From contig JAWLBL010000041.1 of assembly GCA_041687695.1 (NCBI GenBank), forward strand, positions 1 to 50,385: a stretch of 50,385 bases of DNA. The letters are read 5' to 3'. This document shows positions 27,052-50,374 of this stretch, in pieces; the stretch's first letter is position 1, and each line of letters opens with the position of its first letter. The stretch comes from Myxococcota bacterium (lineage in GTDB: Bacteria > Myxococcota_A > UBA9042 > PHBI01 > JAWLBL01). The position numbers and the translations under genes were made by a program. A model generated the notes under the pieces. It saw only the letters and a list, made by a program, of their open reading frames with translations. It ran no database searches and had not been told where the DNA came from.

Positions 27052-27271
27052 GACGGACTCCAGGGCGGGGCCGTCGGGTCGGAGAAGCGGTCCGACGGCG
27101 CGTTCGCGTGACAGGGCGGTCATCATGCCCGACGCCGGCTCGGGCGCCAAACCCGGGTCCGGCGGTTTCGTGACCGCCGGGTTGACCCTCACCCCGCTTT
27201 GGACCTGCCCGGGCCGAAGCTGCTATGAAAGGAGGCGCGCCGTCGCTCGTCGGCGGCAGGGGGAGACAGGC

Positions 27272-28858
27272 ATGAGAGTCGACTACGTCATCATCGGCGC
27301 CGGGATGGCCGGGACCGTGCTGCGCCGCTTCCTGAAGAACGACCGCACCGTGCTGCTCGATCCGAGCCCGGGCGGCTACAAGATCGGCGAGTCGATCATC
27401 CCCGAGCACTTCCACCACCCGGAGCTGCAGGCCCTGCTCCCCGAGGTGCAGAAGCTGCCGTCCTACTCGGCCAAGTGGGGCACCACCTTCGTCTCGGGCG
27501 ACAGCGTCGCCTCCTTCCCGCTGCCCGCCAACTGCACCGAGGTGGCGATGCACGTGGCGCGCGAGGAGCTCGAGCCGCTGATGCATCGCGTGTGGGACAC
27601 GCCGATCGTCCGCGAGCGGGTCGTCGAGGTCGACGTCGCGCGCAAGATCGTCCGCACCGACGCGAACACCTACGAGGTCGCCGAGCAGATCATCGACTGC
27701 TCGGGCCCGGCGATGGTCGTCGCGCGGGCGCTGCGCGACGTGCGCGAGCTGTGGCCGGTCTACGCGCGCTGGGCCTACTTCGACATCGAGGCCATCGACG
27801 ACGCCCGCTTCCGCGAGGACATCCGCCTGAGCGGCCGACGCTACCTGCGCTACGACGCGGTCCACGGGCAGGTCCTCGAGGGCGACGAGGAGGACGGCTG
27901 GCAGCCCTCGAAGACGACGCTGCTCACCCAGGTCGAGCCGGGCGTGTGGAGCTGGCAGATCCCGCTGCACGGCGAGAAGCTGCTGTCGTTCGGCATCGTC
28001 TCGCGCCACGGCAAGGTCACCGAGGAGCGGTTCCAGGCGTGGGTCGAGGCGAGCCGCGGCCGCCAGTACACCCTGCGCGCGCGACCGCGCGACAAGGCGT
28101 CGAACTACGACCGGGTGCACGTGCGCGATCACTTCGCCTGCGTCGCCGGCCGCGCGGCGACCATGGACTACATCCTGCTCGCGGACGCCTACGCCTTCGC
28201 CGACCCGGTCTACTCGGTCGGGACGGGCCTGGCGGTCAACAAGGCGATCGAGCTGGCCGGCCTGCTCAACGACGGCGGCTGGACCGAGGCGCGCTGCGCT
28301 CGCTACAACGCCGAGTACGAGCGTCTGGTCGACCGGGCCATCCGCGCCTTCGACGCCTGGTACACGGGCGATCTCTTCGCGCTGCCGTCGTCGACCCGCG
28401 AGGTCCAGCACAACTTCCTGGTCGGCAGCGCGTTCCAGGTCGGCATCGCCACCCACTACGGCGAGGTCCTGCTCGACGCCTCGCTGCCCGATCCGGACCT
28501 GGCCGGCCGCGCGGGCGTGCCCTCGTCCGCGGCGCCCGTCACCGAGCGCGTGCGCGGCCTGCTGGGCCTCGAGGAGACCGAGGAGCTCGCCGGCTGGCAG
28601 CTCACCGGCGCCTACCCGGCCCTGCCGGGCGTCCAGCTGCGATGGCGCCACCAGCACAAGCCCGAGCTGACCGTCCACATCGCCCCGTCCGACCGCATGA
28701 CGCAGTACTACCGCCGCGTCTCGGGCCTGGCGCTGTCGTTCATGAACCTGTTCGACGGCCCCTACCCGCTGGGCGACGAGGGCCGCGCCCTGTTCGACGC
28801 CCTCGAGCGCCGCGTCCGCGTCGAGGGGCCCTCCTGGCAGCAGCTCAGCGGGGTCTAG
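27272..28858 (+). CDS. FAD-dependent oxidoreductase, flavin-dependent halogenase-like
   Basis: GAGMAG Rossmann motif, KIGESIIP, KWG, DCSG, WSWQIP (WxWxIP), FADPVYSVG; true ATG at 27272 with GGAG RBS. Confidence 0.8.
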   Translation: MRVDYVIIGAGMAGTVLRRFLKNDRTVLLDPSPGGYKIGESIIPEHFHHPELQALLPEVQKLPSYSAKWGTTFVSGDSVASFPLPANCTEVAMHVAREELEPLMHRVWDTPIVRERVVEVDVARKIVRTDANTYEVAEQIIDCSGPAMVVARALRDVRELWPVYARWAYFDIEAIDDARFREDIRLSGRRYLRYDAVHGQVLEGDEEDGWQPSKTTLLTQVEPGVWSWQIPLHGEKLLSFGIVSRHGKVTEERFQAWVEASRGRQYTLRARPRDKASNYDRVHVRDHFACVAGRAATMDYILLADAYAFADPVYSVGTGLAVNKAIELAGLLNDGGWTEARCARYNAEYERLVDRAIRAFDAWYTGDLFALPSSTREVQHNFLVGSAFQVGIATHYGEVLLDASLPDPDLAGRAGVPSSAAPVTERVRGLLGLEETEELAGWQLTGAYPALPGVQLRWRHQHKPELTVHIAPSDRMTQYYRRVSGLALSFMNLFDGPYPLGDEGRALFDALERRVRVEGPSWQQLSGV

Positions 28859-28938: not shown

Positions 28939-31047
28939 ATGCGCAAACCAGCTTCATCGCGTGGGGGGCCGGCCTTCGGGTCGGCGATGATCGGGATCCT
29001 CGGCCTGGCCCTGTGGGGCCTCGCCGCCGGCGGCTGCGGCGACGTGGTCGTCAAGTCGGGGGAGGACGTGGCGGCCGACGCCACGCTCGACGTGCCGGAC
29101 GCCAAGGCGCCGTGCGTCAGCGATCTGGACTGCGCGACCGGCCTGGCCTGCCGCGTGGGTAGCTGCGACGAGGCGACCGGGACCTGCAACGTCACCACGG
29201 CGCCCGAGACCTGCTTCATCGAAGGGGTGTGCTTCACCCGCGACCAACAAGAGCCGGGCGACCGCTGCAGCGTCTGTGACCCCGATCTGAGCAAGATCAC
29301 CTTCGTCAACCGGGTCTGCGAGGCCGGCGAGACCTGCAACCCCGACAACGGTCAGTGCGAGATCGGCGACCTGGCCGGCTTCGGCGAGCCCTGCGCGTCG
29401 GACGCCGCCTGCGAGTCGGGCCTGTGCCTCGAGGGGCCCGAGGGCAAGGTCTGCTCGCGCACGTGCCAGGCGTCGTGCCCCGCCGGCTACGCCTGCGTGG
29501 CGCCCGACGGGGGCGGCGACAGCGTCTGCGTCAGCCGACACCTGGACCTGTGCAGGCCGTGCCAGGCGGACGCCGAGTGCGCCTCGGACGGGGCCTCGCC
29601 GCTGGCGCGGTGCGTGGCCCGGGCGCACGGCGCCGGCAGCTTCTGCGGCCTGGACTGCCAGGCCGACGGCGACTGTCCGGGCGGCTACGTCTGCGAGGCG
29701 GCCGACGGCGAGACCAAGCAGTGCCAGCCCGAGGCGGGTGTGTGCGCGTGCTCGCCGCGCGCGGTCGCCGCTGCCGCCGAGACGGGCTGCGGCCTGGGCG
29801 CCTGCGCGGGCATGCGCTGGTGCGGCGACGACGGGCTGACCGAGTGCGACGGGCCCGCGCCGACGGGCGAGGTCTGCAACGGGCAGGACGACGACTGCGA
29901 CGGCGAGACCGACGAAGACTTCGCCCAGGGCGGCGTGCTGGTGCACGACGAGCACTGCGGCGCCTGCGGCGTGCCCTGCCAGATCCAGGACGGCGTCGCG
30001 GCCTGCGCGCTGGTCGACGGCGCGGCCGTGTGCCAGCTGCTCGGCTGCGAGCCCGGCTTCGAGGAGAGCGCGCCCGGCGTCTGCACGGCCATCGACCCGA
30101 CCGAGTGCAAAGCCGATGGCGACTGTCCGGCGCCCGCCGGCCCGTGCGCCCAGGTCGCCTGCGTCGACGGGACCTGCGCCTATGGCGCGGCGCCGAACGG
30201 GACCGCCTGCGACGACGGGGACCCCTGCACGTCGGGCGACGCCTGCCAGGCGGGCGTGTGCGCCGGGGCGGGCGCCTGCGAGTGCGTCGCCGACGGGGAC
30301 TGCGCCCTGCCGGCGGGACTGGACGCGGGCTGCGCCGCGGTGACCTGCGTGGGCGGCACGTGTCAGGTGCAGCTGGGCGGCGAGGGCAGCGCCTGCGACG
30401 ACGGCGAGGCCTGCACCCAGGGCGACGCGTGCTCCGCGGGGGCGTGCGTCCCCGGCGCGTGGGTGTGCGCCTGCAGCCAGGACTCCGACTGTCCGATCCC
30501 CGCGGGGCAGGTCGCCGCCTGCACGACCGCGGCCTGCGTCGAGGGCGCCTGTGTCTACGGACACCAGGCGGGCGTGTGCGACGACGGCGACCCCTGCACG
30601 ACGGGCGACGCGTGCAGCCAGGGGGCCTGCGCGGGCGTCGCGGTCGACTGCAGCGAGCTCGACGGGCCGTGCCACGAGGGGACGTGCACCGCCGGCGGCT
30701 GCGTCGCCGTGCCGGTCGATCAGGCCTGCGACGACGGCGACCCCTGCACCATCGGCGACGCCTGCGCGGCCGGGGTGTGCGCCGGCGCCGCGCTCGACTG
30801 CTCGGCCCTGGACGGGCCCTGCCAGATCGGCCTGTGCACGGGCGGGCTCTGCGTCGTCGAAGAGGTCGCGTGCGAACTCACCGACGTGGTCGTCCAGACC
30901 CCGAGCGCGGCCCTGTCGGTCGCGCCGGCGAGCGGGGCGCTGGGGCTGCGGGCCAGCGTCGGCCATGCGGGCCCGGTCGGCGCCGCCAAGGGCAGCGGCG
31001 GGCTGTGGATCCGATTCGGCTTCCATGGTGCGACCGCAAGTCCATGA
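28939..31047 (+). CDS. Cys-rich repeat lipoprotein (type C) with the shared C-terminal domain
   Basis: Hydrophobic segment ending [20 protein letters not shown] motif; CDDGDPCT repeats; start may be ATG 28988. Confidence 0.85.
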   Translation: MRKPASSRGGPAFGSAMIGILGLALWGLAAGGCGDVVVKSGEDVAADATLDVPDAKAPCVSDLDCATGLACRVGSCDEATGTCNVTTAPETCFIEGVCFTRDQQEPGDRCSVCDPDLSKITFVNRVCEAGETCNPDNGQCEIGDLAGFGEPCASDAACESGLCLEGPEGKVCSRTCQASCPAGYACVAPDGGGDSVCVSRHLDLCRPCQADAECASDGASPLARCVARAHGAGSFCGLDCQADGDCPGGYVCEAADGETKQCQPEAGVCACSPRAVAAAAETGCGLGACAGMRWCGDDGLTECDGPAPTGEVCNGQDDDCDGETDEDFAQGGVLVHDEHCGACGVPCQIQDGVAACALVDGAAVCQLLGCEPGFEESAPGVCTAIDPTECKADGDCPAPAGPCAQVACVDGTCAYGAAPNGTACDDGDPCTSGDACQAGVCAGAGACECVADGDCALPAGLDAGCAAVTCVGGTCQVQLGGEGSACDDGEACTQGDACSAGACVPGAWVCACSQDSDCPIPAGQVAACTTAACVEGACVYGHQAGVCDDGDPCTTGDACSQGACAGVAVDCSELDGPCHEGTCTAGGCVAVPVDQACDDGDPCTIGDACAAGVCAGAALDCSALDGPCQIGLCTGGLCVVEEVACELTDVVVQTPSAALSVAPASGALGLRASVGHAGPVGAAKGSGGLWIRFGFHGATASP

Positions 31048-31106: not shown

Positions 31107-31136
31107 TTGACAGGCTGGCGTGACAGGGACGAGATT
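31107..31136 (+). promoter_or_regulatory. Putative promoter of cassette 1
   Basis: TTGACA-18 nt-GAGATT; the same geometry is conserved in cassette 2. Confidence 0.5.
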
Positions 31137-31164
31137 CGCGGACATATCGCAGCGAGCGGGTGTC

Positions 31165-33495
<2,331 letters not shown>

Positions 33496-33562: not shown

Positions 33563-36508
33563 ATGAAGACGAAGTGGTGGCCCCGTGGGGTGGCCGCGAT
33601 GTGTGCTGCGGCGGGCATGATGCTCTTGACCGGTCAGGCCTCGGCGATGCCGAGCCAGATCAGCGTCCAGGGGCAGCTGCGCAACGCGGCGGGACCGGCG
33701 TCGGACGGGGTCTACGGGATCACGTTCACGCTCTACACGGCTCAGTCGGGCGGTAGCACGGTCTGGAGCGAGACCCAATCGACGGTCTCGGTGTCCAGCG
33801 GCCTGTTCGCCACCTACCTCGGTGTCGACGAGCTGAACCCGCTGCTGGTCGACCACTTCAAGGACAACGCCCAGGTGTGGCTGGGCATCACGGTCGAGAC
33901 CGGCCCCGGCGTCCCGGTGGGCGGCGAGGCCGAGCTGCCGCGCCAGATGCTGACCAGCGTCGCCTACGCGTTCGTGGCCAAGCACGCCGACTTCGCGGCG
34001 ACGGCGGGGACGGCGGCCTCGGCGACGACGGCCGACTCGGCCACGACGGCGACGACGGCGGGTCACGCCAACACGGCGGACTCGGCGACGACGGCGGGCT
34101 CGGCGGACTACGCGACCACGGCCGGCAGCGCGATCAGCGCCACGACGGCGGGTCACGCGACCACGGCCGACTCGGCGACGACGGCGACCACCGCGACGAC
34201 GGCGACCACCGCCAACGGGCTGAACTGCACGGCCTGCGTGTCGCTGAGCGAGCTGGACTTCGACCCGGTCACCCAGTCCGAGCTGGCGGCCCTGCTGCCG
34301 ACCAGCGTCGACGGGATGAGCGGCGGCACCATCACCAGCTCGGTGACGGTGCAGGGCACGCTGGCGGCGACGGCGGTCACCCAGAACGGCAACGAGGTCT
34401 GCGACAAGTCGGGCAACTGCGGCCCGACCCTGGCCGGCCTGGGCTGCACGACCGACCAGGTCGCCAAGTTCGACGGCTCCGCCTGGGTGTGCGCCGACAT
34501 GGCGGCGGCCGGCGCGCCGGGCGAGGCCTGCGACGGCATCGGGCAGGCCCTGCAGTGGGACGGCACCGAGTGGCAGTGCGTGCGCGTCGAGCACACGGGC
34601 CTGAGCGCCGGCAAGGCCAACGGCTACGAGCTGACCGACGACTGGGGCTTCGTGTGGGACGGCATCCAGCGCGGCGCCAAGAGCTGGAGCGACGCCAAGG
34701 TCCAGTGCGAGAGCGTGGGCGGCCGCCTGCCGACCGCGACCGAGCTGTGGCGCAACAACGCCGCCAACGGCACCGGCAACCTCGGTGACAACAACTCCAA
34801 CGCGTACCTGTGGACGCTGAACCCGAACTACCAGGCCAACCGGCGCTACGTCGTCCGCCTGAACGACGGCGCGATCAGCAACGACGTCGAGACCAACAGC
34901 TACGCCTTCCGCTGCGTGTGGCCCGACGAGGCGTCGGACGCCTTCACGGGCGACAACTGCTTCGGCGCGCCGGGCAACGCCTGCCAGCCGTTCAACCGGT
35001 GGTTCAACGTCGACACCCGCGACCGCGCGCCGATCGACTGGGTGGGCGCGAACTTCGAGTGCAACTTCCACAACGGCTCGCTGCCGACCGGGCGCGACTT
35101 CCAGGAGCTGGTCCAGGGCGGCTGGGCCAACGGCACCAACAGCTGGCTGCACTTCGCCGACGCCTTCGACGGCTACAACAGCACGCAGAACCACACGGGC
35201 GTGGGCAAGTGGAGCGGCGACGGCAAGGTCAACTGGGGCTTCGACGCCGGCACCGACGGCACGGTGGTCTGGCCGTACAACAACTACCGCTTCCGCTGCA
35301 TCGGCAAGCGCGACGCGGGTGAGGGCGTGCTGCCCGAGGAGCCGGCCTGCCAGGGCGAGTGCTTCACGCTGACCAAGCGCGCCTCGCGCATCATCGCCGA
35401 CAACGCGGACCGCGCGGCGGCGACCTACAAGGACGCGGCCGAGACCTGCCGCCTGCTCGGCGGCGGCCTGCCGACGGTCAACCAGGTCACCGAGCTCATC
35501 CACCAGGGCTGGGAGAACGGCTCGAACAACTGGCTGTGGAACGAGGAGACCATCTACTGGTACAGCGGCGGCTACGGCTACCAGATCTACCGCTGGTCCG
35601 GCGGCGCCAACCCGCGCTGGTACCCGGCCTACAGCACCTACACGACGATGTCGGGCCCGACCGGGTCGTACGCCTACCGCTGCATCTGGAACGAGACCTT
35701 CGAGGACAGCCCGACGGTCTGCGCGGCCAACGAGAACCAGATGTGGGACGGCGCGGCGTTCAGCTGCGAGGCGGCCGTCAACGGCGACTCGGGCGGCAAG
35801 GCCAACCCGGGCATCCAGATCGTCGACGCGTGGGGCAACGCCTGGGACGTCATCCAGCGCGGCTCGGACACCTACGCCAACGCCAAGGCGACCTGCGAGG
35901 GCTTCGGCGGCCGCCTGCCGACGCCGACCGAGATCTGGCGCGTCCGCTCGAACCAGAGCATCGCGACCAGCATCGGCGACGTGAACTCGACGTCGTACCT
36001 GTGGACCAACATGCCGGAGTACCGCGACAACTACCGGACCGCGCTGCGCGTCAGCGACGGCGCGGCGACCGCCTACGTCGCGACCGCGACCACGCCCTTC
36101 CGCTGCATCTGGCCGACCACCAAGGGCGACGCCTTCGGCGGCCGCTCGTGCTACGCGGCGGCGGGCGCTGGCTGCTTCCAGTCGGGTCACCTGCGCTGGG
36201 ACCGCTACGACCGCCCCGCGGTCTCGCAGCCCACGGCCGCGGCCGAGTGCGCCTTCTACGGCGGCCGCCTCGCCAAGAGCGAGGAGTTCCTGCAGCTGGT
36301 CCACGCGGGCTCGCCCAACGGCAGCAACAGCTGGCTGTGGATGAACGAGCCGACCTACTGGTACAGCGGTGCCTACGGCTACGCCATCGCCCGCTGGAGC
36401 GGCGTCGGCAACACGGGCTGGGCCTACGACAACGGCACCTACGGCTCGCTGACCGGCGAGGGTAGCTACTACTACTTCCGCTGCGTCTTCTCGGACCTCA
36501 TCGAGTAG
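33563..36508 (+). CDS. Secreted fibre-like adhesin 1 with Thr/Ala repeats and five C-type-lectin-like (DUF1566/Lcl-like) domains
   Basis: Signal peptide ending ASA; QGQLRN...TFTLY...GG..VW.E...GLF...LG...PRQMLTSVAYA N-domain; TADSA/TAGHA repeats; five A...C...GG.LPT...W...[FY]RC units. Confidence 0.8.
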   Translation: MKTKWWPRGVAAMCAAAGMMLLTGQASAMPSQISVQGQLRNAAGPASDGVYGITFTLYTAQSGGSTVWSETQSTVSVSSGLFATYLGVDELNPLLVDHFKDNAQVWLGITVETGPGVPVGGEAELPRQMLTSVAYAFVAKHADFAATAGTAASATTADSATTATTAGHANTADSATTAGSADYATTAGSAISATTAGHATTADSATTATTATTATTANGLNCTACVSLSELDFDPVTQSELAALLPTSVDGMSGGTITSSVTVQGTLAATAVTQNGNEVCDKSGNCGPTLAGLGCTTDQVAKFDGSAWVCADMAAAGAPGEACDGIGQALQWDGTEWQCVRVEHTGLSAGKANGYELTDDWGFVWDGIQRGAKSWSDAKVQCESVGGRLPTATELWRNNAANGTGNLGDNNSNAYLWTLNPNYQANRRYVVRLNDGAISNDVETNSYAFRCVWPDEASDAFTGDNCFGAPGNACQPFNRWFNVDTRDRAPIDWVGANFECNFHNGSLPTGRDFQELVQGGWANGTNSWLHFADAFDGYNSTQNHTGVGKWSGDGKVNWGFDAGTDGTVVWPYNNYRFRCIGKRDAGEGVLPEEPACQGECFTLTKRASRIIADNADRAAATYKDAAETCRLLGGGLPTVNQVTELIHQGWENGSNNWLWNEETIYWYSGGYGYQIYRWSGGANPRWYPAYSTYTTMSGPTGSYAYRCIWNETFEDSPTVCAANENQMWDGAAFSCEAAVNGDSGGKANPGIQIVDAWGNAWDVIQRGSDTYANAKATCEGFGGRLPTPTEIWRVRSNQSIATSIGDVNSTSYLWTNMPEYRDNYRTALRVSDGAATAYVATATTPFRCIWPTTKGDAFGGRSCYAAAGAGCFQSGHLRWDRYDRPAVSQPTAAAECAFYGGRLAKSEEFLQLVHAGSPNGSNSWLWMNEPTYWYSGAYGYAIARWSGVGNTGWAYDNGTYGSLTGEGSYYYFRCVFSDLIE

Positions 36509-40920: not shown

Positions 40921-43137
40921 GTGGGGGCGCCCGTCGTGGCCCAGCGGGGGCCGCGGTATGTCCGGGATGTGTCCGTGATGGGTATGTGCTTGTCTCGTGT
41001 GGGGGCCGTGGCGCTGGCGCTTTCGCTGGCGGCCGGGTGCGGGGGCGATGGGCCGGGCGACGGGTCGGGTGGCGACATCAACCTGGACGCCGGCAAGGAC
41101 GCGTCGCTCGAGGTCTTCGACGTCGACCCGGACGGCAGCGACGACGCCGACGCGCTCGAGCCCGACACGCTGGTCGATGTGACCGATGGCGCCGACGGGG
41201 ACGGCGACGTGCTGGGCGAGGTCGTCGACCCGTGCCTGGACGACCCGGGCGCCGCCGGCTGCGGCTGCGAGGACGGGGCGACCTGCGACTCGGGGGCGTG
41301 CCTGGACGGCGTCTGCGTCGCGTGGTGCGATGACGAGGGTGCCTGCGACGAGGGGACGGCCTGCCTGCAGCTCGGTGAGGACGGCGAGGCCGTCTGCGTG
41401 CCGGCCGCCGCGCTGTTCTGCCGGCCGTGCGTCAGCGACGACGAGTGTCAGCTGCCCGGGGGCGATTCCGTGGGCAAGTGCCTGCCCTACGGGGCGGACG
41501 GCGCCGAGGGCAGCTTCTGCGGCGTGGCCTGCGGGGGTGATGAGGACTGCCCGGCGGGCGCCGAGTGCGACGCGGGCCAGTGCCGCAGCCTCGAGGCCTG
41601 CGTGTGCACGGAGCTGTTCGTCGCCCTGGGGGCCGAGACGGTCTGCGCGGTCGTCAACGACTTCGGGGCCTGCGAGGGCGCGCTGGGCTGCGTCGAGGTC
41701 GGCCAGGCGGCGTGCGCCGCGCCGGCGCCAGCGGCCGAGACCTGCAACGAGATCGACGACGACTGCGACGGCGAGGTCGACGAGGACTGCGACGGCGACG
41801 GGATCGACAACCACAACGACAACTGCACGGAGATCCCCAACGCCGACCAGGCGGACCTGGACGGGGACGGGGCTGGCGACGCCTGCGACGGCGACATCGA
41901 CGGCGACGGCGTGCCCAACGATCAGGACTGCGAGCCTTACAACGCTGCGGTGTACCCCGGCGCGGCCGAGGTCTGCGACGGCGTCGACAACGACTGCGAC
42001 GGCGGGACCGACGACGCGCCCTGCGACGACGGGGACCCCTGCACGACGGACGACGCGTGCGTCGAGGGCGTCTGCGGCGGCACGCCGGGCGGCTGCGACT
42101 GCCAGGTCGACACGGACTGCGCGCTGCCGAGCGCCTACGACGCGGCGTGCGCGACGGTGGCCTGCGTCGACAACCTGTGCGTGGTCACGACGAACGATGG
42201 CGCGTGCGACGACGGGAACGCGTGCACGGTGGCCGACACCTGCGCGGCCGGCGCGTGCGTGGGCGCGGCGCTGACCTGCGACGACGGCGACCCGTGCACC
42301 GACGACGCCTGCGCTCCCGAGACCGGCTGCGTGACCACGCCGGCCGAGGTCTCGGTGGCCTGCGACGACGGCGACCCGTGCACCGACGGCGACACCTGCG
42401 CGGCGGGCGCGTGCGTCGGCGGGCCGCCGCTGAGCTGCGACGACGGCGACGCCTGCACGGTCGACAGCTGCATCGCGGGCTTCGGGTGCGCGACCAACAC
42501 GGCGGCGGACGGGACCTCGTGCGAGGACGGCGACGCCTGCACGACGGGCGACGCCTGCCAGGCCGGCGTGTGCGTGGGCGGCGGCGCGGTGGTCTGCGAC
42601 GACGGCGACCCGTGCACGGTCGACGCGTGCGACCCCGGGACCGGCTGCGTGCACGGGGCGCACACGGGCGCCTGCAACGACGGCGACGCCTGCACGACCA
42701 ACGACTCGTGCGCGACCGGGACCTGCATGGGCCAGCCGCTGGACTGCTCGGACCTGGACGGCGCCTGTGGCGTCGGCGTCTGCGTCGAGGGCGCCTGCCA
42801 GGTGCAGCCGGTCGGCGGCAGCTGCGACGACGGAGACCCCTGCACGGTGAACGACAGCTGCGTCGAGGGGCAGTGCGACGGCCAGGTGCTGGACTGCTCG
42901 GCGCTGGACGGGCCGTGCGGCATCGGGCGCTGCGTGCAGGGGCTGTGCGAGGTCGAGGCCATGCCGTGCGGGGTCTCGGGCGTGCGCTGGCACGTGCCGA
43001 CGACGGCGTTCGACGTGGCGCCGGGCGGCGGCGCGCTGGGGGCGCGAGGCAGCGCCGGGCACGCGGGCCCGGTGGGTGAGTCGAAGGGGTCGGGCCTGTC
43101 GGTCCGGTTCGGGTTCCACGCGGGGAGCACCCCGTAG
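40921..43137 (+). CDS. Cys/Asp-rich repeat lipoprotein A2 (paralog of A1)
   Basis: Lipobox AAGC; shares [24 protein letters not shown] and the repeat order with A1; start is GTG 40921 or ATG 40978. Confidence 0.88.
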   Translation: MGAPVVAQRGPRYVRDVSVMGMCLSRVGAVALALSLAAGCGGDGPGDGSGGDINLDAGKDASLEVFDVDPDGSDDADALEPDTLVDVTDGADGDGDVLGEVVDPCLDDPGAAGCGCEDGATCDSGACLDGVCVAWCDDEGACDEGTACLQLGEDGEAVCVPAAALFCRPCVSDDECQLPGGDSVGKCLPYGADGAEGSFCGVACGGDEDCPAGAECDAGQCRSLEACVCTELFVALGAETVCAVVNDFGACEGALGCVEVGQAACAAPAPAAETCNEIDDDCDGEVDEDCDGDGIDNHNDNCTEIPNADQADLDGDGAGDACDGDIDGDGVPNDQDCEPYNAAVYPGAAEVCDGVDNDCDGGTDDAPCDDGDPCTTDDACVEGVCGGTPGGCDCQVDTDCALPSAYDAACATVACVDNLCVVTTNDGACDDGNACTVADTCAAGACVGAALTCDDGDPCTDDACAPETGCVTTPAEVSVACDDGDPCTDGDTCAAGACVGGPPLSCDDGDACTVDSCIAGFGCATNTAADGTSCEDGDACTTGDACQAGVCVGGGAVVCDDGDPCTVDACDPGTGCVHGAHTGACNDGDACTTNDSCATGTCMGQPLDCSDLDGACGVGVCVEGACQVQPVGGSCDDGDPCTVNDSCVEGQCDGQVLDCSALDGPCGIGRCVQGLCEVEAMPCGVSGVRWHVPTTAFDVAPGGGALGARGSAGHAGPVGESKGSGLSVRFGFHAGSTP

Positions 43138-43210: not shown

Positions 43211-46153
43211 ATGAAGACGAAGTGGTGGCCGCGTGGGGTGGCCGCGATGTGTGTGGCGGCGGGCATGATGCTCGCGGCGGGTCCGGCGGCGGCGACGCCC
43301 AGCCAGATCAGTGTCCAGGGGCAGCTCCGGAACGCGGCCGGGCCGGCGGCGGACGGGGTCTACACGATCACGTTCACGCTCTACACGGCGCAGACCGGCG
43401 GCAGCGTCGTCTGGACCGAGACCCAGAGCACGGTCGACGTGTCGAGCGGCCTGTTCGACGTCTTTTTGGGCGCCGACGAGGTCAACCCGCTGCTGGTCGA
43501 CCACTTCAAGGACAACGCCCAGGTGTGGCTGGGCATCGCGGTCGACGCCGGCCCGGGCGTGCCCGTGGGCGGTGACGCCGAGCTGCCGCGCCAGATGCTG
43601 ACCAGCGTGGCGTACGCGTTCCTCGCGCAGCACGCCGAGAGCGCGGCCACGGCGGCGCACGCGACGACGGCCGACTCGGCGACGACGGCCGACTCGTCGA
43701 CGACGGCCACCACGGCGACGACCGCCGGCCACGCGACGACGGCGGGCTCGGCGGACTTCGCGACCGCGGCCGGCACGGCCAGCAGCGCGGACACCGCCGG
43801 GTACGCGACCAGCGCGGGCTCGGCCGACTCGGCGACCACGGCCACCACGGCGACGACGGCCAACGGGCTCGAGTGCACGGCCTGCGTGTCGCTGACCGAG
43901 CTGGACTTCGACCCGGTCACCCAGAGCGAGCTGGCGGCGCTCCTGCCGACCAGCGTCGACGGTCTGGCGGGCGGCACCATCACCAGCTCGGTGACGGTGT
44001 CGGGCACGCTGACCGCCAACGCGATGGTCCAGAACGGCAACGAGGTCTGCGACGCGTCGGGCAACTGCGGGCCGACCCTGGCCGGCCTGGGCTGCACCAC
44101 CGACCAGGTCGCCAAGTTCGACGGCACGAGCTGGGTCTGCGCCGACCTGTCGTCGGCGTCCGGCCCGGCCGAGCCCTGCAACGGCCTCAACGAGGCGCTG
44201 CAGTGGGACGGCGCCGCGTGGAGCTGCGTGCGCGTCACCGAGACCGGCCTGAGCGCCGGCAAGGCCAACGGCTACGAGGTGCGCGACGACTGGGGCTACG
44301 CCTGGGACGGCACGCAGCGCGGCGCCAAGAACTGGGCCGACGCCAAGGCGCTGTGCGAGTCGCTCGGCGGCCGCCTGCCGACCGCGACCGAGCTGTGGCG
44401 CAACAACGCGAACACCGGCACGGGCAACCTGTCGGACAACGCGGCGTCGACCTACCTGTGGACCCTCATCCCGACCTACCACGGCGATCGCCGCCGGGCG
44501 GTGGTCCGCCTCAGCGACGGCGCGGTCTCGAACATCCTCGAGACCAACACGACGTCGTTCCGCTGCGTGTGGCCCGACGAGCAGCCCGACGCCTTCTACG
44601 GCGACAACTGCCACGGCGCGCCGGGGGCCGCCTGCCAGACGTTCAACTACTGGTACCACGTCGACACCCGCGACCGCGCGCCGCTCGACATCGTGGGCGC
44701 GACCGCCGAGTGCAACTTCAACCAGGCCTCGATCCCGACCAGCCGCGACGTGCAGGAGCTGATCCAGGCCGGCTGGCCGAACGGCACCAACAACTGGATC
44801 TGGATGGCCGACAGCAACGACTCCTACGACGGCTCGCAGCCGCGTCTCGCGCTCGGCCGCTGGACCGGCGACCAGCGCCAGAACTGGGGCTTCGACGCCA
44901 GCGCCCCCGACGGCGCCATCAGCTGGGGCTACGATGCGCGCCACTTCCGCTGCTTCGGCAAGCGCGCCGCCGACCTGGGCGTGCCCGTGGCCGATCCCGC
45001 GTGCGAGGGCGGCTGCTTCGAGAACCACGCGCGCGCCTCGCGGCTGGTGGCCGACACGGTCGACCGCGCGGCGGCGACGCAGAACGACGCGGCCGAGACC
45101 TGCCGCCTGCTCGGCGGCTCGCTGCCGACCGTCGGGCAGATGATCGAGCTGATGCAGCGCGGCTGGGAGGGCTCCAACGCCTGGCTGTGGGTCGACGAGA
45201 GCATCTACTGGTACAGCGGCGGCTACGGCTACCAGGTGGCGCGCTGGAACGGCGTGGTGGACCGCTGGTACCCGTCGTACAGCACCTACACCTCCTACTC
45301 CGCGCCCAGCACGGCGCGCCCCTACCGCTGCGTGTGGCCCGAGCGCTACGAGGAGTCGCTCACGCTGTGCCAGCCGGACGAGAACCAGGTGTGGGACGGC
45401 GCGGCGTTCTCCTGCGAGGACGCCGTCAACGGCGACTCGGACGGCAAGGCGAACCCCGGCATCCAGATCGTGGACGCCTGGGGCAACGCATGGGACGTCA
45501 TCCAGCGCGGCGCGGCCAACTATGCGGACGCCAAGGCGACCTGCGAGGGCTTCGGCGGGCGGCTGCCGACGCCGACCGAGATCTGGCGCGTGCGCTCCAA
45601 CCAGACCGTCGCGACCAGCATCGGCGACGTGAACTCGACCTCGTACCTGTGGACGATGATGCCCGAGTATCGGGACAACTACCGCACGGCGGTCCGCGTC
45701 AGCGACGGCGTCGCGACGGCCTACGCCGAGACGGCGACCACCCCGTTCCGCTGCATCTGGCCGACCACCAAGGGTGACGCCCTGACGGGTCGCTCCTGCT
45801 ACAGCGAGGCGGACGTCGGCTGCTTCCAGTCCAACCGCCTGCGTTGGGACCGCTACGACCGCCCGGCCATCACGCAGCCGGCCGCGGCGGCCGAGTGCGC
45901 CTTCTACGGCGGCCGCCTGCCCAAGACCGACGAGTTCCTGCAGCTCGTCCACGCGGGCTCGCCCAACGGGACCAACAACTGGCTCTGGACCGCCGAGACC
46001 GCCTACTGGTACAGCGGCAACTACGGCTACCAGCAGGCGCGCTGGAGCGGCGTCGGCAACACCGGCTGGCGCTACGAGAGTGGCCTGGGCGGCGTGGTGA
46101 CCGAGAGCAACCTGCGCTACTTCCGCTGCGTCTTCACGGACGTGATGGAGTAG
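43211..46153 (+). CDS. Secreted fibre-like adhesin 2 with five C-type-lectin-like domains (paralog of adhesin 1)
   Basis: Identical start MKTKWWPRGVAAMC at ATG 43211 with GGAG RBS; same domain order as 33563-36508. Confidence 0.8.
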   Translation: MKTKWWPRGVAAMCVAAGMMLAAGPAAATPSQISVQGQLRNAAGPAADGVYTITFTLYTAQTGGSVVWTETQSTVDVSSGLFDVFLGADEVNPLLVDHFKDNAQVWLGIAVDAGPGVPVGGDAELPRQMLTSVAYAFLAQHAESAATAAHATTADSATTADSSTTATTATTAGHATTAGSADFATAAGTASSADTAGYATSAGSADSATTATTATTANGLECTACVSLTELDFDPVTQSELAALLPTSVDGLAGGTITSSVTVSGTLTANAMVQNGNEVCDASGNCGPTLAGLGCTTDQVAKFDGTSWVCADLSSASGPAEPCNGLNEALQWDGAAWSCVRVTETGLSAGKANGYEVRDDWGYAWDGTQRGAKNWADAKALCESLGGRLPTATELWRNNANTGTGNLSDNAASTYLWTLIPTYHGDRRRAVVRLSDGAVSNILETNTTSFRCVWPDEQPDAFYGDNCHGAPGAACQTFNYWYHVDTRDRAPLDIVGATAECNFNQASIPTSRDVQELIQAGWPNGTNNWIWMADSNDSYDGSQPRLALGRWTGDQRQNWGFDASAPDGAISWGYDARHFRCFGKRAADLGVPVADPACEGGCFENHARASRLVADTVDRAAATQNDAAETCRLLGGSLPTVGQMIELMQRGWEGSNAWLWVDESIYWYSGGYGYQVARWNGVVDRWYPSYSTYTSYSAPSTARPYRCVWPERYEESLTLCQPDENQVWDGAAFSCEDAVNGDSDGKANPGIQIVDAWGNAWDVIQRGAANYADAKATCEGFGGRLPTPTEIWRVRSNQTVATSIGDVNSTSYLWTMMPEYRDNYRTAVRVSDGVATAYAETATTPFRCIWPTTKGDALTGRSCYSEADVGCFQSNRLRWDRYDRPAITQPAAAAECAFYGGRLPKTDEFLQLVHAGSPNGTNNWLWTAETAYWYSGNYGYQQARWSGVGNTGWRYESGLGGVVTESNLRYFRCVFTDVME

Positions 46154-49906: not shown

Positions 49907-50374
49907 ATGCGCCACCTCTTCGCCGTCCTCGCGCTTGCCGCCCTGCTCGTCGCGCCCGCCGCCCACGCGCGGCAGCTGGCCAAGCCCATCCCGATCCCCG
50001 GCCTGCAGGCCGGCCAGCCGAGCGGGCTGAAGCTGCGCATCGTGAAGTACCAGGGCGACACCAACGGCAGCATGCTGGTCGACGTCGTCAACGACGAGCC
50101 TGTCCCTCAGCCCTTCGTGGCGACCGGCCTGTACTTCGTCCCCAAGGGGGACCCCGAGACCTCGCCGCAGCGCCTCGGCGCGGCCGGTCCCTTCGACGTC
50201 GTCGGCGCCAAGGGCGCGTCGCCGAAGGACCAGCTGATCGTGGCCCCGGGTGCGACGGTGCGCCTCGAGCTGCAGGTCTTCTGCATCGTTACTCCTCGCC
50301 GTAGCCCATGCCCGGGCCCCCCAGTCGTGTGCTTCAATCACCGCGGAGGCGTGTGGGCTGGAGCCGCGCCGTAG
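49907..50374 (+). CDS. Secreted hypothetical protein; the 3' end may be disrupted
   Basis: GGAG RBS; signal peptide ending AHA; host-like codons up to ~50287, atypical codons afterwards. Confidence 0.65.
   Translation: MRHLFAVLALAALLVAPAAHARQLAKPIPIPGLQAGQPSGLKLRIVKYQGDTNGSMLVDVVNDEPVPQPFVATGLYFVPKGDPETSPQRLGAAGPFDVVGAKGASPKDQLIVAPGATVRLELQVFCIVTPRRSPCPGPPVVCFNHRGGVWAGAAP

Follow-up and report, generated by a model that had tools for sequence, protein, structure and literature searches.

A cluster of Cys-rich lipoprotein and fibre genes

We analysed a 50,385-nt stretch of DNA from a Myxococcota bacterium (GenBank assembly GCA_041687695.1, contig JAWLBL010000041.1, positions 1 to 50,385 of the forward strand; hereafter the window). 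It carries five genes for Cys-rich lipoproteins and two for fibre proteins, and our subject is the short Cys-free tail that closes each of the five lipoproteins, a candidate docking module for the fibres. The seven genes lie on the + strand in the order A, B1, F1, C1, B2, F2, C2, with gaps of 67-250 nt. Gene A (28939..31047) encodes a Cys-rich acidic lipoprotein stalk followed by the tail; its start possibly lies some codons downstream, and the protein collection holds a 686-aa form. B1 (31120..33495, start codon uncertain) and the long C1 (36636..40670) are Cys-rich lipoproteins with Dicty_CTDC (PF00526) repeats and the tail. B2 (40921..43137) is a paralogue of B1 (65-67% identity) and C2 (46242..49844) a paralogue of C1 (75% identity).

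The fibre gene F1 (33563..36508) encodes a signal peptide, an N-domain of ~107 aa resembling that of the mosaic adhesive trimer (MAT) fibres of Bdellovibrio, then an Ala/Thr-rich stalk and then C-type-lectin-like repeats. F2 (43211..46153) is its paralogue, with a like N-domain, stalk and repeats and with 74% identity overall and 85% in the N-domain. The two N-domains are encoded at 33647..33967 and 43295..43615, and that of F1 is the putative binding partner of the tail. Both fibres contain Lectin_C/Xlink repeats and neither is Cys-rich. Their named homologues assign the organism to Myxococcota. The cluster is a tandem duplication of a B-F-C unit downstream of A.

The five lipoprotein open reading frames (ORFs) are 702-1344 aa long, with 11-13% Cys and a GC content at third codon positions of 0.95-0.98. 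Inspection of the sequence, unaided by a signal-peptide predictor, shows that an [AG]-[AGS]-[AGS]-C lipobox-like motif closes a hydrophobic stretch in all five.

A Cys-free tail with two predicted hairpins

Measured from after the last Cys, all five lipoproteins end in a Cys-free tail of 51-57 aa, as the original prediction had described. The tail is 57 aa plus stop in A (30874..31047), 56 aa in B1 (33325..33495; 67 nt upstream of F1), 51 aa in C1 (40515..40670), 55 aa in B2 (42970..43137; 73 nt upstream of F2) and 53 aa in C2 (49683..49844). The tails can be aligned with a mean column identity of 66%, and V, P, G, S-x-G-H, P-x-G and G-F are invariant. When a profile of the five was run against the 82,129 six-frame ORFs of the 7.97-Mb genome, it recovered the same five only, which are hits by construction (E 7e-30 to 4e-22); the next match stood at E 0.2.

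The tail had been thought to be kept even between non-paralogous lipoprotein types. This view did not hold up. Sequence comparison makes A, B and C paralogues, with a common N-terminal Cys block (46-51% identity between types) and common repeats before the tail. Identity is no higher in the tails (39-73%) than in the 110 aa before them (53-78%). Because the types are paralogous and resemble each other at least as much in the adjoining repeats as in the tails, tail conservation within the window needs no more than duplication, and we rejected a special conservation of the tail between non-paralogues.

An AlphaFold2 monomer model of the B1 tail, built from an alignment of 78 sequences, has four strands (13-17, 26-30, 37-40 and 46-49), paired into two hairpin-like units. 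Its confidence is moderate (pLDDT 69, pTM 0.35), and it agrees with the beta-hairpins suggested earlier. The modelled monomer appears as an open hairpin set rather than a self-sufficient globule, which would fit a part that folds on a partner.

The five tails matched no Pfam or NCBIfam family. Across all 78 tails the best E against Pfam was 0.05, and no family was found in more than two of them. PDB sequence searches with the tail and with the small-protein form of the domain (described below) gave no match, nor did a fold search with the moderate-confidence tail model or the plasmid searches. The top Atlas clusters for the tail are unnamed and score 0.82-0.88, i.e. below 0.9, and a literature search that covered few subscription papers found neither the tail domain nor a MAT anchor described. 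No characterised domain of unrelated function came up, and by these comparisons the tail belongs to no described family that we found.

Tail genes often precede fibre genes in Myxococcota

Evidence that the tail is a real domain comes from the sequences of other genomes. A profile of 22 tails, with 16 candidates scored per genome, matched in 32 of 401 genomes of the phylum, 31 of them in the window's class. We took 60 regions, which cover 67 of the 97 matches outside the window's own genome; weak matches and seven near-identical orthologues were excluded. All 67 tails are C-terminal, 0-6 aa from the C-terminus, on Cys-rich ORFs (7-13% Cys). For 32 of the 67 tail genes the next gene encodes the fibre N-domain; for 8 more such a gene stands at another place in the region, and for 27 there is none. 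The carriers differ, with PF00526, TSP_3/MopE or List_Bact_rpt (P0008) repeats or a small dockerin-like protein, and the fibre neighbour persists.

The neighbours of the tail genes are far from random. In five whole Myxococcota genomes, chosen for holding several tails and with 20 weak fibre matches unlisted, 24 of 36 tails are followed on their own strand, at a distance of <500 nt, by the start of a fibre N-domain, where 0.28 would be expected; fibre genes number 6-99 per genome in this set. Among 61 genomes of the class, some of which supplied training sequences to the profile and which as kin are not independent, 60 have fibre genes and 25 have tails. The genomes with tails make up 17 of the 20 that have at least 15 fibre genes, 5 of the 8 with 6-14 and 3 of the 33 with 0-5. 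In an out-of-sample test, 20 regions were picked by the MAT-N model only, and the three best tail-profile matches among their 2,547 ORFs (E 0.0015, 0.019 and 0.78) are divergent C-termini, each with a fibre gene directly downstream.

The basic tails and acidic fibre N-domains of the window raised charge complementarity as a candidate, which proved not to be general (31 pairs, correlation +0.33, p 0.07). Covariation of tail and fibre subtypes was not used as a sign of co-evolution, because the subtypes follow family lines.

Fibre gene numbers vary widely. Five genomes (G264, G052, G048, G022 and G046) have 60-99 MAT-like fibre N-domain genes each, a number several-fold above the 21 MATs in Bdellovibrio HD100, and their close kin have 2-3. 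In another genome (G033:C2, about 30,600-83,700; L210, L211) ~13 fibre genes lie behind a single tail-bearing Cys-rich lipoprotein gene. One family (L080-L120) has tails with an extra amphipathic helix-like terminal extension and neighbouring fibre N-domains without a loop insertion of the window's type, a pairing that is confounded with phylogeny.

Small secreted proteins of other phyla carry a related domain

The original prediction also proposed a likeness to small secreted proteins of other phyla whose genes often neighbour fibre genes, and both profile comparisons and gene neighbourhoods bear it out. Nine loci, mostly of Verrucomicrobiota, were taken with the S74-tipped fibre homologue P0110 (whole protein as query). 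When 1,153 ORFs were ranked by a tail profile built from Myxococcota only, five of the six best were small secreted proteins, from four of these loci (E 0.013-0.16). Profile-profile comparison of the tail with the small proteins gave P 78% and E 1.8e-5, and a second comparison P 63% and E 6.8e-5; an hhalign P of 96.6% was discarded as circular, since alignment A10 contains two small-protein rows. The tail profile scored 93 of 122 small-protein domains at >=10 bits, together with none of 2,440 shuffles and none of 122 reversals. In the reverse test, the small-protein profile scored 24 of 78 tails at >=5 bits, and 34 of 1,560 shuffles. Genome-wide in five genomes, 8 of 16 tail-profile matches were small-protein genes.

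The small-protein family is large (3,228 matches among 8,000 scored candidates) and nearly all unnamed. Its domain is modular: a signal peptide is followed by the domain and then by a lineage-type C-terminal domain, a dockerin-like domain or a short terminal motif, and InlB-type repeats are among the modules fused to it in other lineages. One secreted protein, P0113, has three tandem copies and then a dockerin (PF00404); its single-sequence folding was uninformative (pLDDT 35.5).

The coupling to fibre genes recurs here, in either gene order. Five genomes have 25 small genes, and 21 of these lie <=5 kb from a fibre N-domain on the same strand, with 0.22 expected and 4 seed loci included; a small gene is near 22 of the 40 fibre genes. 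Eighty metagenome loci, mostly short contigs, include 24 with a fibre N-domain, among them 10 of the 13 with >=4.3 kb upstream. A further broad homologue search returned Myxococcota carriers and dockerin-like small proteins only, with no further phyla, and scans of viral contigs for the small domain and for CPR-like (Candidate Phyla Radiation) fibre N-domains gave no match.

At their C-terminus, small proteins of the Verrucomicrobiota type (L121-L209) share a conserved domain of ~80 aa that neither Pfam nor NCBIfam names and that may be a lineage-specific sorting or anchoring domain.

Remote matches to MAT fibres and to the pilus-tip protein PamT

F1 matched NF053851 (Bdello_MAT_N) weakly, at 16.7 bits and E 0.005, when cut to 121 aa, and did not match when cut to 107 aa; 29 of 52 homologues of the fibre N-domain matched the same model, with a best E of 3.6e-7. 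By this weak match the F1/F2 N-domain would be a relative of the MAT N-domain and not a member by the cut-off. Against PDB sequences the fibre N-domain gave E>=0.14 only. Like MATs, F1 and F2 join this conserved N-domain to a stalk and variable lectin-like tips, and their homologues share the mosaic architecture with a variable adhesive tip that marks MATs, with S74, P-domain, fibrinogen-type and other tips. The homologue P0110 ends in peptidase S74, as S74-type MATs do.

The paper that defined MATs states their attachment to the cell as open, the N-domain presumably binding a surface element yet to be identified (Caulton et al. 2024, PMC10769870), and the accessible text of two later reviews gives no MAT anchor (PMC13689555, PMC12428579). 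Where the accessible text of PMC10769870 identifies no partner domain, the tail offers a concrete ~50-aa candidate.

The small-protein form of the domain also weakly matches the N-terminal part of PamT, a CPR protein that is placed at the Pam pilus tip by prediction (Troman et al. 2026 preprint, PMC13278184); a tail-fibre-like gene is conserved near pam operons (PMC13278184). Against the NF058579 model (CPR_pilus_PamT), 11 of 50 domain-only queries matched model positions about 31-77, with a best E of 0.016. Genome-wide in three genomes, 9 of 10 matches of the PamT model were small genes (best E 4.6e-5, 24.6 bits, signal peptide partly included), and the model matched 3 of 78 Myxococcota tails (best E 0.01). 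The matches to the segment at model positions about 27-77, compared through the NF058579 model only, are consistent but weak. There are differences. The preprint gives PamT a single truncated Ig-like domain and its accessible text makes no mention of the matched segment (PMC13278184), while the carriers in the window are Cys-rich repeat lipoproteins with no truncated Ig-like pilin domain, no match to PamT or other pam models and no pam genes.

A proposed adaptor for trimeric fibres

The earlier suggestion was of a docking or oligomerisation module. Docking is the part that we favour: we give somewhat better than even credence to the reading that the tail is a modular beta-hairpin adaptor that would dock trimeric MAT-like fibres onto each lineage's own surface anchor, the binding step being drawn from gene context and weak profile links. 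The portable ~50-aa tail would grip the conserved, cell-proximal N-domain of the fibre by adding beta-strands to it, probably with three tails for each fibre trimer (3:3), F1 and F2 being presumed to trimerise. A lipid-anchored, disulphide-rich repeat stalk would hold the tail away from the cell. Because the stalks of A, B and C vary in length, the lectin-tipped F1 and F2 may be displayed at the surface at different reaches. In other lineages the same domain is joined to other modules, namely a Verrucomicrobiota C-terminal domain, dockerin-like domains, InlB-type repeats and perhaps the PamT pilin domain. An adaptor would be the simplest account, because the domain and the fibre N-domain are constant across phyla while the carrier and the fibre tip vary.

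There is precedent for the proposed mode of binding. In chaperone-usher pili, donor-strand complementation allows a strand from one protein to complete the sheet of another. Pam pili use it as well (PMC13278184). The principle proposed here is the same in that strands would complete or extend another protein's sheet. It differs in that the donor would be a two-hairpin unit of ~50 aa rather than a single strand, and in that the proposed partner is the base of a trimeric fibre.

Several observations weigh against this reading. Tail-fibre binding is something we infer, and the function assigned to the tail draws on gene context and weak profile links. MAT-N scores lie far under the 60-bit cut-off, with none shown above it and none of 21 genomes above it. 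PamT-model scores are far below their own cut-off (240 bits; best 24.6), and this model finds nothing in the window's own genome and matches 3 of 14 control genomes at E<=1. The window's own tails score -1.0 to 4.2 bits with the small-protein profile (hhalign P 10%), so that the cross-phylum link is transitive, via relatives.

Gene counts also leave room for doubt. For 27 of the 67 tail genes the region lacks a fibre gene. At five loci that were inspected (L012-L015 and L017), all of one fibre-less orthologue group, the tail gene precedes a methionine-synthase-like gene (a label from reading the sequence); this group could be a shared anchor acting in trans. The figure of 32 of 67 is biased upward, because seven high-scoring matches of the fibre-less group were left out, and the counts are not independent, because the genomes are kin. 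Fibre genes exceed tails by up to about 7:1 (99 versus 15 in G264). No tail match was found in 35 of the 60 fibre-bearing genomes of the class, including three of one family with 19-31 fibre genes, nor in the other 17 of the 20 MAT-N-picked regions. In the window's own genome 3 of 5 fibre N-domain genes have no detected tail neighbour, and the window itself holds five tails for two fibres. The many fibre genes without a detectable partner imply that partners act in trans, that the profile misses divergent copies or that other anchors exist.

Alternative explanations

The five carriers for two fibres in the window, the tail genes without fibre neighbours, the three tandem copies in P0113 and the open strand model could also be read as signs of self-oligomerisation. 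The tail would then bring its carriers together as trimers, building a surface scaffold or the base of a fibre, and would serve the same adhesive structure without direct contact with the fibre N-domain. We consider this unlikely, since it leaves unexplained why unrelated carriers in two phyla stand beside genes that share only the fibre N-domain.

Donor-strand chaperones of chaperone-usher pili are released after stabilising the folding and secretion of the subunits. The tail might similarly be a transient chaperone or export escort that stabilises or nucleates the fibre N-domain in secretion or trimer folding and is then released. Such an escort would show the same gene coupling, and it is compatible with an excess of fibres over tails and with a single tail gene ahead of a long fibre array (L210). 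However, long lipid-anchored stalks of varied length and dockerin-like or pilin-like modules suit display over periplasmic folding, which makes this explanation rather improbable.

Coupling could arise by descent alone if the lipoprotein-fibre operon were vertically inherited and the tail, as a terminal cap or a ligand-binding domain, had no relation to the fibre. Paralogy does account for all conservation in the window, the genomes are kin and not independent, and tail and fibre subtypes divide along family lines. What such hitch-hiking fits poorly is the recurrence of the coupling in a second phylum, with a different carrier architecture and in either gene order, and we attach only a small probability to it.

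A new C-terminal sorting signal, which had been suggested earlier, would be an analogue of the type IX secretion system C-terminal domain (T9SS CTD) or of PEP-CTERM/MYXO-CTERM. The tail is like these in being a short conserved C-terminal segment on secreted proteins, and it lies 0-6 aa from the C-terminus in all 67 Myxococcota genes. Unlike them, it has no transmembrane helix and no Pfam or NCBIfam match, and in the small-protein branch of other phyla it stands directly after the signal peptide and ahead of other domains, or is tandemly triplicated, so a fixed C-terminal position is not kept. The carriers already have lipobox-type signals. In the window's own genome only the five fibre-cluster proteins are tailed, among 167 long Cys-rich ORFs (spurious frames included), and 16 upstream ORFs that were scanned showed no secretion machinery except a resistance-nodulation-division (RND) efflux set. 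We give this suggestion very little credence.

YadA-type trimeric autotransporter adhesins resemble the proposed adaptor in that a small beta-rich unit would hold a trimeric fibre on the surface; here that unit is on a separate gene, would grip the N-end of the fibre and turns up in a lineage that has no outer membrane, whereas the autotransporter anchor is a C-terminal membrane barrel on the fibre's own chain. The alternating hydrophobic and small-polar strands and the terminal G-F-aromatic motif could hint at a split version of that anchor, an oligomeric outer-membrane beta-barrel, but it is most improbable given that the domain is N-terminal with other domains after it in the small proteins, that it has matches to PamT, a protein of the CPR bacteria, in which there is no outer membrane (PMC13278184), that it has no Pfam match and, as weak evidence from a low-confidence model, that there is no fold match to any barrel.

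Wider implications of the docking reading

A broader and more tentative proposal, which we hold to be plausible but on balance doubtful, is that MAT-like, phage-tail-like fibres in bacteria at large would have one ancient unnamed hairpin domain as their general clip. Its mounts would be Cys-rich lipoprotein stalks in Myxococcota, small secreted adaptors in Verrucomicrobiota and other groups, and the tip pilin PamT in CPR. There it would fix a tail-like fibre that recognises the host at the tip of the Pam pilus, the host-recognising component at that tip being still open in the CPR preprint, as far as its accessible text goes (PMC13278184). Under this proposal the tail and the fibre N-domain would form a two-gene, mix-and-match surface display system, and divergent copies would be the Bdellovibrio MAT anchor. 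If the docking reading is right, adhesin display in predators, CPR and the Planctomycetes-Verrucomicrobia-Chlamydiae (PVC) group would be joined under one mechanism, a large class of hypothetical proteins would be explained and a small docking pair would be at hand for surface display.

Neighbouring genes and genomic setting

Directly after C2, at 49907-50374, lies a gene for a small secreted-looking protein with no Pfam match; it is near the contig end and its C-terminus is possibly unreliable. The gene upstream of the cluster (27271-28858) has, by eye, a dinucleotide-binding-like N-terminal motif and gave no Pfam match at E<=0.01. The region at 755-26600 holds housekeeping genes with no evident link to the fibre cluster, encoding a transglutaminase, DUF58, an RND efflux trio, a thiamine pyrophosphate (TPP) enzyme, ketol-acid reductoisomerase, a Ser/Thr kinase, a hydrolase and MsrAB. 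The genome as a whole is rich in Cys-rich, secreted-looking proteins: the 167 ORFs mentioned above, some of them spurious, exceed 300 aa and 7% Cys, and several of these proteins end in a hydrophobic-plus-Arg, sorting-like tail.

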